64,000 nucleotides of DNA from a virus. A program made the translations under genes and the position numbers. Below, in pieces: positions 21,406 through 50,867 of this stretch; the stretch's first letter is position 1, and each line of letters opens with the position of its first letter. The DNA is taken from positions 15,362-79,361 of the IMG/VR virus record IMGVR_UViG_3300027905_000001. One strand, written 5' to 3'. Below the pieces are notes generated by a model. That model saw only the letters and a program-made list of their open reading frames with translations. It made no database searches and was not told where the DNA came from.

Positions 21406-21588
21406 TTAGTCCCTATAGGCTTTTATACACTTCCCGATATCCATTTGCGTACCTGCACTTTTTGCAAGAACTGAACCCACTAACACGGAATCAAGGAATT
21501 CCCTAGCCTTCTTAGCTTCGTCGGGCGTTAGGTAATCTCTATATGTTTTTCGTGGCTTTTTGAATTGTCGGGCTGTTTTACCGAGCAT
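21406..21588 (-). CDS. Hypothetical small protein
   Basis: Track ORF. Confidence 0.3.
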   Translation of the reverse strand: MLGKTARQFKKPRKTYRDYLTPDEAKKAREFLDSVLVGSVLAKSAGTQMDIGKCIKAYRD

Positions 21589-21600
21589 GGCTTGCCCCTC

Positions 21601-22455
21601 CTAATCTTTTTTTGTCCTGTGGTCAAAATCTTTGGCAAATAATAAATGATCTACCGTCATGCCTAAAATCCTAGATACTGTAGCCTCGCCGTAATCTCCT
21701 AATCTTTCTTCAAGTGGTTTGGGGTAGTAGTTCGTCGTAAACCCCGTCAATAGATTGGCGCGATACCTTAGATCAATCAGCCGGTAATACATCGCTTGCA
21801 CCCATTCTGTGGGTTTTTCCTTGCCGACATCGTCCAAGATCAGAGCTTGAGCCTTGGCTAAAGTTTCAATCTTTGCCTCCATGCCACTTTCGTTTTTCCT
21901 GAACTGAGCATCCCTTAACTCTGCAAGTAAGTCGGCAGACGATACAAACACAACCTGCACCCCTTTATCAAGCATGTCCTTGGCGATAATGCTGGCTAAC
22001 ATCGTTTTCCCTACTCCTGGATTTCCGAGCAATAAAAACCCTTTGGCGTCCGATTCACTTTTGATTAATTCAGGCCATAGCTTTAAGTAATTAATTACAC
22101 CCTTGTGCATGTTTCGGTTTCCGTCGTTGACTTTATAATTAGCAAGGCTGTATCTGAGCTGTTGAGATGTTAGCCCGGATGATTTTAGTTTTCTGGCCGC
22201 GTTCTTCTTAATCTTACAAACACACTCCTTGTAAAGCGTTAGTCCGTATAAGTCTTTTTCATCAGTGGCAACTATCTCCCGATCTTCACAATCAGAGCAG
22301 TTATATTTCTTTTCGACAGGTTTTAAACTGTATCCAGATGTTCCAGTGTTGAAAAGGTTAAGTCTGTTCCTAACTTCTTCCTCTGAGGATTTCGGAGAGT
22401 ATGGGGTCCGTTTCCCAAGGTTTAGAATCTCCTTGATCGATTGAATTGCTTCCAG
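21601..22455 (-). CDS. DnaC/IstB-like AAA+ helicase loader; canonical start missing
   Basis: Walker A GNPGVGKT, Walker B LILDD; first ATG at 22110, but frame stays open upstream to 22477 with no ATG/GTG/TTG; AGGGAGG precedes CTG at 22455. Confidence 0.6.
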   Translation of the reverse strand: MEAIQSIKEILNLGKRTPYSPKSSEEEVRNRLNLFNTGTSGYSLKPVEKKYNCSDCEDREIVATDEKDLYGLTLYKECVCKIKKNAARKLKSSGLTSQQLRYSLANYKVNDGNRNMHKGVINYLKLWPELIKSESDAKGFLLLGNPGVGKTMLASIIAKDMLDKGVQVVFVSSADLLAELRDAQFRKNESGMEAKIETLAKAQALILDDVGKEKPTEWVQAMYYRLIDLRYRANLLTGFTTNYYPKPLEERLGDYGEATVSRILGMTVDHLLFAKDFDHRTKKD

Positions 22456-23290
22456 TTTTGTTACCTCCCTTGGCTTTTAAGTTCTTGCCCCATTTAACAC
22501 AATTTCCCAGCCACGTATTAATCTGTGATCTTGGTTTACTTTTTACATCAAGCGGCTTATCTAGTTTGTCGAAAGACCAGTCCTTAATCGCTCCCAAGAT
22601 ATCTATGGTTGGGTATCGTTCTTGAAGCTCTCGGTACATTTTCAATTCCTTCGCCCTGTCAATCGGATAATCCTTAACTTTTTCAAGTGTGCGAATTAGG
22701 TCTATTTCATCAGGCAGAAGAATGAGATCATTTTCTTTTCTTTCTTTTACTTCCTTTCCTTTACTATTCTCTTCTTTAGGGATTTCTGTAGGAAATAATC
22801 CATCTTCAAGAGGATTAATGTCTACATTAACTACAGATGGTAGGTTGTTACCGTCAACATAAACCATATTTACAGTAAAATTATCAGTTTGCTTAGGTGG
22901 AGAAATAAGTAGATATTCAGATATGAGCGTTATCTCTTTGCGTCTTTCTACAGATTTGAAGTATCTTTTTTGGATTCCTCCGCTAGTAAGTATTTCGTAT
23001 TTTAGATACAAGGATGAATTGAAAAATTCCCACTTAATGCAATCAGAAACTATCTCGGTGATAATATTAATGTCTACATTAACCTTACTGGAGAGTAGTA
23101 ATTGTTCGCGCTCTGTCCATTTATAGAAATATCCTTCCTTATATATTTTCATAAGAAGTTTGATTAAAACCGCAAATCCAGTGATCTTATGCTTTGCTTC
23201 AATAAGCAAAACTTTGTCGTCTTGGTCCATGTCAATATCGAGGGGAAAATAATCCAATCCCTCTTTTTGCGGTCTTGCCAAGTCATTCAC
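22370..23290 (-). CDS. Replication initiation / replisome-organiser protein (DnaD-like)
   Basis: N-terminal DYFPLDIDMDQDDKVLLIEAKHKITGFAVLIKLL typical of phage replisome organisers. Confidence 0.55.
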   Translation of the reverse strand: MNDLARPQKEGLDYFPLDIDMDQDDKVLLIEAKHKITGFAVLIKLLMKIYKEGYFYKWTEREQLLLSSKVNVDINIITEIVSDCIKWEFFNSSLYLKYEILTSGGIQKRYFKSVERRKEITLISEYLLISPPKQTDNFTVNMVYVDGNNLPSVVNVDINPLEDGLFPTEIPKEENSKGKEVKERKENDLILLPDEIDLIRTLEKVKDYPIDRAKELKMYRELQERYPTIDILGAIKDWSFDKLDKPLDVKSKPRSQINTWLGNCVKWGKNLKAKGGNKTGSNSIDQGDSKPWETDPILSEILRGRS

Positions 23291-23501
23291 CTTCCACTAA
23301 AGAAAAAATATCATCATATGGAATATCAAGCTCCTCAGCTATCTTCTTGGCTGTAGCAGGACTAGGGTTGAATCTGCCCTTTTCGATTGCATAAATACTT
23401 TCCTTGGACACTCCAACCTTCTTGGCTAAATCTGCAATTGACACGCCTTTTCTTATCCTTAACTCCGCTAATTTAGCTCGGTCGGTTTTAATTTTTAACA
23501 C
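23283..23501 (-). CDS. HTH XRE-family transcriptional regulator
   Basis: ELRIRKGVSIADLAKKVGVSKESIYAIEKG. Confidence 0.65.
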   Translation of the reverse strand: MLKIKTDRAKLAELRIRKGVSIADLAKKVGVSKESIYAIEKGRFNPSPATAKKIAEELDIPYDDIFSLVEGE

Positions 23502-26625: not shown

Positions 26626-27219
26626 TTAAAAAGGATAAAGTTCTAGTGGAATATTTCTTCCAGCCTCCGCGATTACAACAATTTTTCCTGTCAACTCTTC
26701 GATTTCTCTAACCATTCTTTCTGCGTTGGAATTGCTGTCTGATAAATGAAGTAGCACTATCTTCTTCACTTGCGACAAATCATTAGCTCGCAAAAACTCT
26801 TTGACATGCTCAAGTGAAAAATGGCTTTCGAGTAGTCGGTTTTTCATGCTTTGGGGGATGTAGCCAGCTTCAATGTTTGCGTCAAGGGTATCTTTGCAGT
26901 AGTTTGATTCTACAAGGATATAATTTAGTGAATTAAAACGATTGCGAATATAGTAGGTATCCGTACAAAAAATAAGTTTTTCGCTGGTTGGTTTGTATTG
27001 AATTAGGTAGCCGAAAGGCTGATCGCAATCATGTTGAGTGTCGAACGGTAAAACGATGAAATCTCCAACTTGAAACTGTACGCCAGCGTCAACCATTTGT
27101 GTTCTGTGGCTCTGAGATATGCCTATTTGCTTGGCTGTTCCGGAAGAGGTATAAATATCTACACCCGCCTTAATAACGTCCTTTGCGCTTCGTGAATGGT
27201 CAAAGATGTTCGTGGGTTA
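26626..27219 (-). pseudogene. MBL-fold (YycJ-like) metallo-hydrolase missing its N-terminus
   Basis: Frame open 37 codons upstream of first ATG (27096) with no RBS; starts ...NIFDHSRS where HxHxDH is expected; downstream blocks ESHFSLEH, LLHLSDSNSN. Confidence 0.5.
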
Positions 27220-50209: not shown

Positions 50210-50680
50210 TTATTCGATTATGGTCCAGTCTTCGACGAGCATATCGGTTTGTGACGCTAACCAGCCCATAAGAATTTTATTATCTGCCGTTTTCATGATG
50301 ATGTATGGCAAAACGTCCGCGCTCCCGCCATTTTCCTCAGCGAATTTCCGACTGTGTTTATTCCAGAATCCTTCAGCTTTCAAGCTGTTGGCTTCGGGGT
50401 GAGAAATTGCAATCCACATTGCTTTACCGTTCCAACCCTGACGAGCAACCTTAAAACCCTTTTTCATGGCTTCAATCGCCAATCCAAACGTCATACCATC
50501 AGTTTGGCGGTAGGCCGCCTCGAACACATCTTTAGGCGACCAACTTACATAATCATCCTCGCAAATAACCTTGTAGCCGTCTTGGCATTCTCCAGAATAA
50601 ACCAGGGGTCTTACTTGCTCGTTATACTCCGCAACAGTCATTGGTTCGGCATGAATAATTTTTACTCCAATATATTGCAT
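50210..50680 (-). CDS. DUF2829-like protein (Tad2-like candidate)
   Basis: MTFGLAIEAMKKGFKVARQGWNGKAMWI ... WLASQTDMLVEDWTII; internal ATG would give ~94 aa. Confidence 0.45.
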   Translation of the reverse strand: MQYIGVKIIHAEPMTVAEYNEQVRPLVYSGECQDGYKVICEDDYVSWSPKDVFEAAYRQTDGMTFGLAIEAMKKGFKVARQGWNGKAMWIAISHPEANSLKAEGFWNKHSRKFAEENGGSADVLPYIIMKTADNKILMGWLASQTDMLVEDWTIIE

Positions 50681-50867
50681 TTGCTTTTCCTTCTTTCAGT
50701 TTTTCATTTCGACAAATGCATACCTAATTATAGCCCCATCGACCATTTCACTAATCTAAAAATCCCATAGCAGGTTGCCCCGCCCCCAATCATCCCAAGA
50801 GCAATAACAACCTTGATGAGAGTATCAATTATTTTGGCATCTTTATCGGTTATCCCCCACATACTCA

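Follow-up and report, generated by a model that had tools for sequence, protein, structure and literature searches.

Among the systems that bear on the locus described here, lambda O contacts lambda P through its C-terminus, and infC starts at AUU, a rare start codon. In Firmicute helicase loading, the tail of DnaD engages DnaB, and the tail of DnaB in turn engages the AAA+ domain of DnaI (PMC13326638), the N-terminal domain of which is a zinc-binding helicase-interaction domain (PMC2673437). CTG initiates at only 1–2% of the AUG level in E. coli (bioRxiv 10.1101/063800), and a survey of ATA, ATT and CTG starts in Listeria found them in <0.3% of core genes (PMC13068326).

Here, we analyzed a minus-strand gene in a viral DNA stretch of 64,000 nucleotides (hereafter, the window), which belongs to SbF1, a genome assembled from a SIP metagenome, for which strain heterogeneity is 10%. 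A DnaC/DnaI-like AAA+ ORF extends from 22476 to 21601, a frame of 291 codons. As the initial annotation had recognized from the sequence, its first ATG, GTG or TTG is the ATG at 22110, behind 122 start-less codons that run up to the stop at 22477; the 169 codons 3′ of this point contain 12 canonical start codons, versus none in the 122 codons on the 5′ side. The window has 55 ORFs that run for ≥150 codons from stop to stop, and none has a longer start-less leader than this one; the runner-up has 40 codons. A run of this length has a chance probability of ~0.004 given the in-frame canonical-start triplet frequency of the window (4.4%). The other features that had been noted also proved to be present, namely a cysteine-containing segment upstream of the ATG (CSDC at 22299–22288 and CVCK at 22224–22213), an AGGGAGG sequence followed by a CTG, and an overlap with the upstream DnaD-like gene, whose terminal TAG at 22372–22370 lies 86 nt inside a CTG-started loader. 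We consider it probable (roughly 0.78), on the strength of the sequence comparisons below, that an intact loader of 284 aa is translated from this CTG. The coordinates are summarized in Table 1.

Table 1. Features of the loader–initiator locus in the window
Feature	Coordinates	Strand	Basis
Proposed CDS of the DnaC/DnaI-like AAA+ helicase loader, 284 aa, CTG to TAG	21601–22455	-	Translation, profile matches, homologues, AF2 model
Loader stop codon TAG	21601–21603	-	Sequence
Walker B, LILDDVG	21823–21843	-	Sequence; D208 and D209 invariant
Walker A, GNPGVGKT	22003–22026	-	Sequence; G147, G149, K150 and T151 invariant
ATG of the database annotation (169-aa "fragment"); internal conserved Met116	22108–22110	-	P0009/SPF51184.1; no Shine-Dalgarno (SD) sequence; in a helix; aligns to an internal Met of full-length homologues
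Zinc-ribbon-like segment CSDC...CVCK (C53, C56, C78, C80), upstream of the annotated start	22213–22299	-	Alignment and AF2 model
Dual-coding overlap, 86 nt: loader residues 1–29 and initiator C-terminal tail, loader frame +1 to initiator	22370–22455	-	Sequence and relatives
Replication-initiator gene (Lin1244_N/DnaD-like), likely start TTG 23281 rather than GTG 23290	22370–23281	-	Pfam, PHROG, SD
Initiator tail motif KPWETDPIL; family consensus PW-(E/K)-x-DPY-(L/M/C)	22397–22423	-	Sequence and alignment
Initiator tail peptide NSIDQGDSKPWETDPILSEILRGRS; consensus DPYL			
Proposed CTG initiation codon	22453–22455	-	Sole in-frame near-cognate with a strong SD; same arrangement in L002, L173, L176/L177 and L180
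SD sequence AGGGAGG, 8 nt from its last G (22464) to the CTG	22464–22470	-	Sequence and anti-SD duplex energy
In-frame TAA closing the loader frame upstream	22477–22479	-	Sequence

The gene product belongs to the DnaC/DnaI/IstB clade of AAA+ helicase loaders by profile, motif and fold alike. It matched Pfam IstB_IS21 (PF01695; 3.9e-14, 53 bits versus a cut-off of 24.1), PHROG 50 "DnaC-like helicase loader" (1.8e-47, residues 41–282), NCBIfam PRK06921 (residues 24–276), and the DnaC and DnaI entries of the PDB (~1e-12). Besides the Walker motifs, the protein carries FTTNY and VSR, with R230 and R262 invariant in 28 sequences; by position, R262 is a candidate arginine finger and N242 a candidate sensor I. 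The top Foldseek matches of the predicted structure were DnaI (2w58), DnaC (6qem) and IstB (8q4d, 5bq5), all with a probability of 1.00. Judged by profile scores, the loader is a member of a phage subfamily and not a DnaI or DnaC orthologue, because it fell below the curated cut-offs of the NCBIfam DnaI and DnaC equivalogs (79.8 bits versus 228 for DnaI). An IS21 IstB transposition helper was rejected, as the upstream neighbor is a Lin1244_N/DnaD-like initiator rather than IstA, and the IS21_help_AAA score was 63 bits versus a cut-off of 200.

We then asked where the protein begins. Full-length homologues span 98–99% of the CTG-started product at about 55–83% identity, and conserved protein sequence reaches ~110 residues upstream of Met116. 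The profile matches to PHROG 50, NCBIfam, and the PDB entries of DnaC and DnaI likewise begin well before residue 116. Between the overlap and Met116, dN was 0.14–0.22 with dS saturated, corresponding to a dN/dS of ~0.07–0.12. Across 28 sequences, C53 and C56 never vary and C78 and C80 hardly do. The AF2 model of the 284-aa loader had an overall pLDDT of 84.4, rising above 90 for the zinc ribbon and for a β-hairpin (61–67/73–77), and it places Met116 within a predicted helix (114–130); the conserved CxxC...CxC together with the confidently modeled hairpin is zinc-ribbon-like by prediction, although neither sequence nor fold gave a match confined to the DnaI N-domain. Thus, given the homology, the dN/dS of ~0.1, the conserved cysteines and the confident model, the comparison and the modeling indicate that the N-terminal region is real protein under purifying selection, and Met116 is an internal residue, not the start. 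The initial annotation had allowed that homologues might instead begin at the position equivalent to 22110 with nothing conserved upstream, which is the opposite of what we found. The predicted layout would comprise a disordered N-terminal stretch of ~45 residues, a zinc-ribbon helicase-interaction domain, a linker and the AAA+ ATPase.

The SD duplex at CTG 22455 amounts to −13.2 kcal/mol, on par with the starts of neighboring genes (−11.4 to −13.9), compared with −3.5 at ATG 22110 and −3.4 to −5.0 at the other in-frame near-cognate codons. Upstream duplexes of −11 kcal/mol or stronger accompany 8 of the 1502 CTG triplets in the window, and of these eight CTG 22455 alone opens an ORF of ≥60 codons. 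The RNA around the SD and the start is unstructured, less structured than shuffled sequences (z +1.19); an SD-masking hairpin, as a translational coupling model would have it, was looked for at the loader start and rejected. Initiation at the CTG would be driven by the AGGGAGG and read as fMet by the initiator tRNA.

Comparison with related loci showed the same architecture throughout. In all 23 distinct loci, a single strong SD (−10 to −17 kcal/mol) stands a few codons ahead of a conserved SI(K/R)EIL motif, and homologues begin within a few codons of the position of the CTG. The codon behind this SD is ATG in 9 loci, GTG in 7, TTG in 2 and CTG in 5, window included. The five CTG loci are the window, L002, L173, L176/L177 (one locus seen in two assemblies) and L180, the four outside the window coming from assemblies of other projects, and on the protein tree they fall at no fewer than three distinct places. 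L002 is the locus of Ca. Desulfosporosinus nitrosoreducens PR. As L002 and L180 are just 68% identical, the CTG start has been retained over a long divergence. L173 resembles the window in having no canonical start before the zinc ribbon; L002, L176 and L180 contain other in-frame canonical codons, none with an SD, and the strict need for a non-canonical start is therefore confined to the window and L173 among the CTG loci. Because the sole strong SD precedes the CTG, homologues start nearby, and the SD-plus-CTG arrangement recurs in relatives, initiation at CTG is the best reading, and from this combination we infer its actual use in translation.

Several other explanations for the missing canonical start were weighed against initiation at CTG. 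In a decaying prophage, an ATG- or TTG-to-CTG mutation could have silenced the loader, leaving a pseudogene too young to have acquired stops. The low efficiency of CTG in E. coli would fit such a loss, as would the GTG or ATG starts of the nearest relatives (~80% identical), the TTG of L178 at the homologous site (GGAGGTAACACGA-TTG versus GGAGGTAACAAAA-CTG in the window, one transition apart) and the two frameshifts elsewhere, which are reported by the initial annotation alone and on which a Pfam scan of five adjacent or overlapping ORF pairs shed no light. We nevertheless regard it as unlikely, as the 291-codon frame is intact, all catalytic and zinc motifs are kept, the SD is fully preserved, the N-terminal region has a dN/dS of ~0.1, and SD-plus-CTG is shared with four further loci, two of which differ by 32% in protein sequence, a pattern unexpected for a lethal lesion. 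An error in the consensus, whether a miscalled base or a strain chimera that replaced a true ATG, TTG or GTG, is very unlikely. The genome was co-assembled from Illumina reads with CLC and has the strain heterogeneity given above, and an independent copy of this exact locus was not found by exact-protein look-ups of two window proteins, by scanning viral contigs for the sequence pattern at the loader start with the first base left free, or as a near DNA match in the phage collection. However, coverage is ~34x, a substitution falling exactly in the start codon is improbable, and the four assemblies of other projects also show CTG at this SD-coupled position.

Two further possibilities would place initiation elsewhere. 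Among the other near-cognates, ATT 22446 is the strongest contender; the closest relatives L043, L045, L046 and L048 have an in-frame ATG at the aligned position (M-QSIKEIL), and AUU is an established if rare start. Yet this ATT lies 17 nt past the last G of the SD, and the duplex in the usual SD position is just −3.4 kcal/mol. The matching ATG in those four relatives also lacks an SD (−2 to −4), their SD-coupled start lying 8–9 codons upstream, while L044 and L054 carry ATA at this position and a proper ATG upstream; its use is highly improbable. We give even less weight to a programmed +1 (or −2) ribosomal frameshift in the overlap, which would append the loader to the C-terminus of the DnaD-like initiator. 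Internal SD-like sequences can stimulate +1 shifting, as in prfB; the loader frame is also +1 to the initiator, both here and in the 21 relatives with an overlapping initiator, with an overlap of 80–110 nt conserved. On the other hand, by-eye inspection of the window overlap and the codon alignment revealed no slippery, stop or rare slow-decoding codon at a fixed position, and the SD-to-CTG spacing of 8 nt is of the initiation type, versus 3 nt for prfB-type stimulation. Furthermore, 18 of the 23 loci have an ordinary SD and a canonical start at the same place, which identifies independent initiation as the mode of this family. Thus, of the three readings that the initial annotation had left side by side, CTG initiation gained support from the sole strong SD, the homologue starts and the recurrence; the base error, the kind of data-quality problem toward which it had leaned, and the frameshift fusion are unneeded and without positive support, and both, like the pseudogene, are poorly supported.

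These results also bear on how the gene has been annotated. The ORF listing of the window gives the loader solely as a 169-aa ORF. The database likewise begins the protein at ATG 22110 and names the 169-aa entry "DNA replication protein (fragment)"; this is an artefact of gene calling, since the usual programs accept no start codons other than ATG, GTG and TTG. Relatives have also been called short (171, 168, 221 and 239 aa). The idea that such truncated homologues (P0028 and others, 157–239 aa) are start-less was rejected for most, as L043, L050 and L174 have a normal GTG or ATG with an SD; their truncation probably arose where a program would not accept a long overlap of genes on one strand. 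The truncated loader calls would hence come from two weaknesses of gene callers, which miss CTG starts and overlaps of ~90 nt between genes on the same strand.

The gene upstream of the loader encodes a replication initiator, matching Pfam Lin1244_N (1.2e-26) and the replication-initiation families PHROG 20437/2562. Its start is likely TTG 23281 rather than GTG 23290, because the SD duplex is −11.4 kcal/mol at the former and −2.7 at the latter. The overlap with the loader and its frame relation are kept in 21 of 22 related loci, the exception being L172, and within the overlap both the third-position variability of the loader and its dS are depressed. At least four unrelated Pfam families of initiators share the PW-x-x-DPY tail, which is encoded inside the 5′ end of the loader gene. 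The 5′ end of the loader gene would in this way double as coding sequence for the C-terminal tail of the initiator. By analogy with B. subtilis, where the C-terminal tail of DnaB binds the AAA+ domain of DnaI, the initiator tail probably contacts the loader. Published descriptions of an overlap between initiator and loader genes were sought, with no relevant result.

What might such an arrangement be for? As CTG initiates poorly in those species in which it was measured, output of the loader may be very low, and a weak start codon could keep the loader scarce relative to the initiator. An excess of DnaC-type loader is known to inhibit the replicative helicase. Weak starts (CTG, TTG or GTG) are present in 14 of the 23 loci. 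We tentatively propose, as a possibility that we hold to be less than even, a self-contained "adaptor cassette" in which a second reading frame over the first ~100 nt of the loader gene specifies a universal C-terminal tail, through which various unrelated initiators or organizers would dock onto this loader. Mosaic recombination could then swap initiators without breaking the initiator–loader contact, and weak starts would be selected to keep a potentially helicase-poisoning loader sub-stoichiometric, making the CTG a maintained regulatory start and not an accident. The dual-coded tail is a testable candidate for the initiator–loader contact in a group of Desulfitobacteriaceae prophages, and it illustrates how, in mosaic phage genomes, two modules that interact can be linked by coding sequence that overlaps. 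General principles are unchanged by this finding, which is of moderate interest: the CTG-started loader is a known kind of exception, mis-annotated as a "fragment", with a modestly interesting family pattern.

Compared with described systems, the loader shares with DnaI of B. subtilis and S. aureus and with phage DnaC-like loaders the AAA+ core, the Walker A and B motifs, the candidate sensor I and arginine finger, and a gene position directly 3′ of a replication-initiator gene; in addition, its ATPase is preceded by a cysteine-rich N-terminal domain predicted to be zinc-ribbon-like, which recalls DnaI. It differs in being just 16–26% identical to the solved loaders in fold alignments, in its predicted disordered and dual-coded leader of ~45 residues, and in its proposed CTG start. 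The initiator tail resembles those of DnaD, DnaB and lambda O, as a short, conserved, aromatic-containing C-terminal tail on diverse initiators or organizers encoded immediately 5′ of the loader. Unlike them, PW-x-x-DPY lies within the loader gene in a different reading frame and recurs in initiators of unrelated Pfam families, with the loader as the candidate partner. Like infC and other genes with fixed near-cognate starts, the loader has a near-cognate codon behind a normal SD, would use the initiator tRNA with presumably low output, and belongs to a class routinely missed by gene callers. In contrast to the near-cognate genes of Listeria, SD-coupled CTG accounts for 5 of 23 loci in this one phage gene family and ATG for merely 9, a proportion well in excess of what is usual for such starts, which points to selection for low loader output.

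On the minus strand, the frame of the DnaC/DnaI-like AAA+ loader runs open from 22476 to its stop codon, TAG 21603-21601; the in-frame stop on its upstream side is TAA 22479-22477. As the initial annotation claimed, it lacks a canonical start over 122 codons, the first ATG/GTG/TTG being ATG 22110, and the AGGGAGG (22470-22464), CTG (22455-22453), CSDC and CVCK elements lie where that annotation had placed them. In the window, 55 stop-to-stop ORFs reach 150 codons or more, and none of the others comes close to this start-less leader, the runner-up having 40 codons. Of the window's in-frame codons, 4.4% are canonical start triplets, giving P ~0.004 for 122 codons without one; the loader's C-terminal 169 codons hold 12. 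The next-longest leaders, of 40 and 31 codons, belong to 26626-27216 (minus) and 50261-50770 (plus), respectively, which are possibly further mis-started or disrupted genes.

The loader and the overlapping initiator sit within a phage-like replication module, near a DUF5131/radical-SAM-like gene, methylases and an HNH endonuclease. Four genes in a row here (21588-23501, minus) use four different starts, GTG, TTG, CTG and ATG, with a strong Shine-Dalgarno (SD) sequence before each. The initiator most likely begins at TTG 23281 (SD −11.4; product M-ARPQKEGLDYFP, resembling MARPKKQTVDYFP in the related locus L131) rather than at GTG 23290, the start in the ORF listing, whose SD of only −2.7 amounts to none.

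Features of the replication module in the window
Feature	Position	Strand	Matches
HTH gene	start GTG 23501	minus	
Lin1244_N/DnaD-like replication initiator	23281/23290..22370	minus	Pfam 1.2e-26; PHROG 20437/2562
Initiator tail KPWETDPIL	22423-22397	minus	
AAA+ loader	between initiator and small ORF; CTG-started CDS 22455-21601	minus	
Small ORF	start ATG 21588	minus	

The N-terminal 115 residues of the loader are genuine protein. Homologues retrieved with the CTG-started 284-aa query covered 98-99% of it at 55-82% identity; aligning them shows no variation at C53 and C56 and almost none at C78 and C80, and the SSGL...Q segment that follows is likewise conserved. Alignments to family profiles begin well before residue 116 (PHROG 50 at residue 41, NCBIfam PRK06921 at 24), as do those to solved loaders (DnaI 4m4w at 75, DnaC 6qel at 91). 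Between the overlap and Met116, comparison with the closest relatives (~80% identity) gave dN of 0.14-0.22 and dS of ≥1.45 where estimable and saturated in the remaining pairs, with dN/dS of ~0.07-0.12. The AlphaFold2 model (pLDDT 84.4) matches the fold of DnaI, DnaC and IstB; residues 1-45 are disordered, the cysteine-bearing beta-hairpin 61-67/73-77 and helix 80-93 each reach pLDDT ~90, and Met116 falls within helix 114-130. The N-terminal domain of DnaI is a zinc-binding helicase-interaction domain (PMC2673437), the equivalent of which a product begun at Met116 would miss. Because homologues, cysteines, profiles, dN/dS and the model support the region upstream of ATG 22110, which itself lacks an SD (−3.5 kcal/mol), we set aside the refuting case named by the initial annotation, in which homologues would begin at the counterpart of that ATG and the sequence upstream would be unconserved.

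For each ATG, GTG, TTG, CTG, ATT, ATC or ATA codon in frame near the N-terminus, we then computed how well positions −20 to −4 pair with the 16S 3′ tail, taking a generic Firmicute anti-SD. Of the window's candidates, only CTG 22455 was preceded by a strong SD (−13.2 kcal/mol, 8-nt spacer), on par with the start SDs of neighboring genes (−11.4 to −13.9). An SD of −11 kcal/mol or better precedes 8 of the 1502 CTG triplets in the window, and CTG 22455 alone among them opens an ORF of ≥60 codons. RNA near it shows less structure than its shuffled versions (z +1.19). Taken with the relatives described below, SD-driven CTG initiation is the best explanation of the headless loader (probability roughly 0.8), as judged from sequence. 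CUG starts are functional yet weak, reaching in E. coli 1-2% of the AUG level (bioRxiv 10.1101/063800), and near-cognate starts occur in <0.3% of core genes in Listeria (PMC13068326).

Loss of the start codon in a decaying prophage is unlikely, given the low dN/dS. The 169-aa ORF from ATG 22110 is 100% identical to SPF51184.1, a "DNA replication protein (fragment)" of Candidatus Desulfosporosinus infrequens. That genome is metagenome-assembled (Illumina, CLC co-assembly, ~34x coverage, 10% strain heterogeneity; PMC6372793), and an assembly error at the loader start, as the initial annotation had suspected, is quite improbable. Initiation at another near-cognate codon is more improbable still: ATT 22446 scores −3.4 and the remaining in-frame candidates no better than −5.0 kcal/mol. 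Least probable of all is a +1 frameshift fusion with the initiator, the ORF of which extends 86 nt beyond the loader CTG (22370-22455, minus).

The pairing of a strong SD with CTG also recurs among relatives. We gathered the DNA of 22 further distinct loci from genomic, metagenomic and viral-contig sequences and by look-up of exact proteins; each carries a single strong SD (−10 to −17) a few codons ahead of a conserved SI(K/R)EIL motif. Across the 23 loci including the window, which are phylogenetically non-independent, the SD-coupled codon is ATG in nine (L001, L044, L046, L050, L051, L054, L129, L131, L174), GTG in seven (L043, L045, L048, L049, L179, L181, L183), TTG in two (L172, L178) and CTG in five: the window, L002 (Ca. 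D. nitrosoreducens PR), L180 (Logan SRR22746138), and L173 and L176, two contigs of GCA_016276955.3, with L176 recurring as L177 in a Logan assembly. In L173, as in the window, no canonical start precedes the zinc ribbon (the first in L173 is GTG at codon 60); L002, L176 and L180 contain further in-frame canonical codons, all without an SD. The CTG loci fall in at least three separate places on a neighbor-joining tree. L173 is 94% identical to the ATG-started L051, whereas the sisters L002 and L180 share only 68% identity, and CTG has therefore been kept through deep divergence. L178 reads GGAGGTAACACGA-TTG and the window GGAGGTAACAAAA-CTG, so the window start is one transition from a TTG start. 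Among close loaders, L172 (206-1108, TTG start) alone has no initiator ORF overlapping it from upstream; its downstream neighbors are SdpI-like and HTH genes, and it possibly represents a relocated or stand-alone copy.

Public homologue calls are often cut to 157-239 aa (L043, L050, L174, L181, L183; protein clusters P0028 and P0036). We rejected these as a sign of missing starts, since a good SD and canonical start lie upstream, such as the SD and GTG before the 171-aa call on the L043 contig. Gene callers disallowing a ~90-nt same-strand overlap are the probable cause.

Wherever a relative has an initiator upstream (21/21), that gene's stop falls 80-110 nt into the loader, whose frame is +1; the arrangement is absent from more distant loaders (~40% identity). 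The upstream protein families vary (Phage_rep_O; Phage_rep_org_N with Phg_2220_C; DnaB_2; Lin1244_N; some without a Pfam match), and all end in the tail ..G(D/N)xxPW(E/K)xDPY(L/M/C).., common to initiators from four or more unrelated Pfam families and encoded in another frame within the loader's first ~30 codons (window; L001, L002, L043-L054, L129, L131, L173-L183). Loader third-position diversity is 0.40-0.43 in the overlap versus 0.57-0.58 elsewhere, and dS is 0.37-0.74 versus saturated. By pN/pS, constraint is stronger on the loader frame across the first nine codons (0.33 versus 0.61 for the tail frame) and stronger on the tail frame across the following six, which make up the DPYL part (0.53 versus 0.87). 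The overlap is dual coding, located in the loader's disordered leader. The B. subtilis proteins DnaD and DnaB use their C-terminal tails to contact the next helicase-loading protein, and one such contact is that of the DnaB tail with the AAA+ domain of DnaI (PMC13326638); by analogy, the phage tail is plausibly a putative loader-docking (or helicase-docking) peptide, which would travel with the loader gene when initiator modules exchange.

The window tail reads DPIL (22397-22405, minus) versus DPY(L/M/C) in nearly all relatives, and the loader correspondingly TPYSP versus T-(P/H)-T-S in most relatives; from sequence comparison, the site looks like a local compensated +1/−1 change (ACCCCATACTCT vs ACCCCTACCTCG). 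In L049 (1477-2607), a Phage_rep_org_N...Phg_2220_C replisome organizer carries an HNH endonuclease domain between its halves and retains the common tail. Initiator linkers of the L044, L054, L050 and L176 upstream ORFs contain ETSEEPLPDHL repeats (x2-5), NNS runs and SPSPSPSP runs, and repeat copy number varies among close relatives.

These findings correct the "fragment" annotation of the loader. CTG starts are rare but known exceptions, and the loader adds a further case; what goes beyond routine is how frequently CTG and other weak starts appear across the family, together with the shared dual-coded initiator tail, neither of which was described in any paper found in a limited literature search. 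Profiles, motifs and fold place the loader in the DnaC/DnaI/IstB AAA+ loader clade. An IS21 IstB identity was rejected, as IstA is absent and the score falls under the cut-off. Compared with bona fide DnaI and DnaC, the loader scores under the NCBIfam cut-offs for both, and so represents a phage subfamily.
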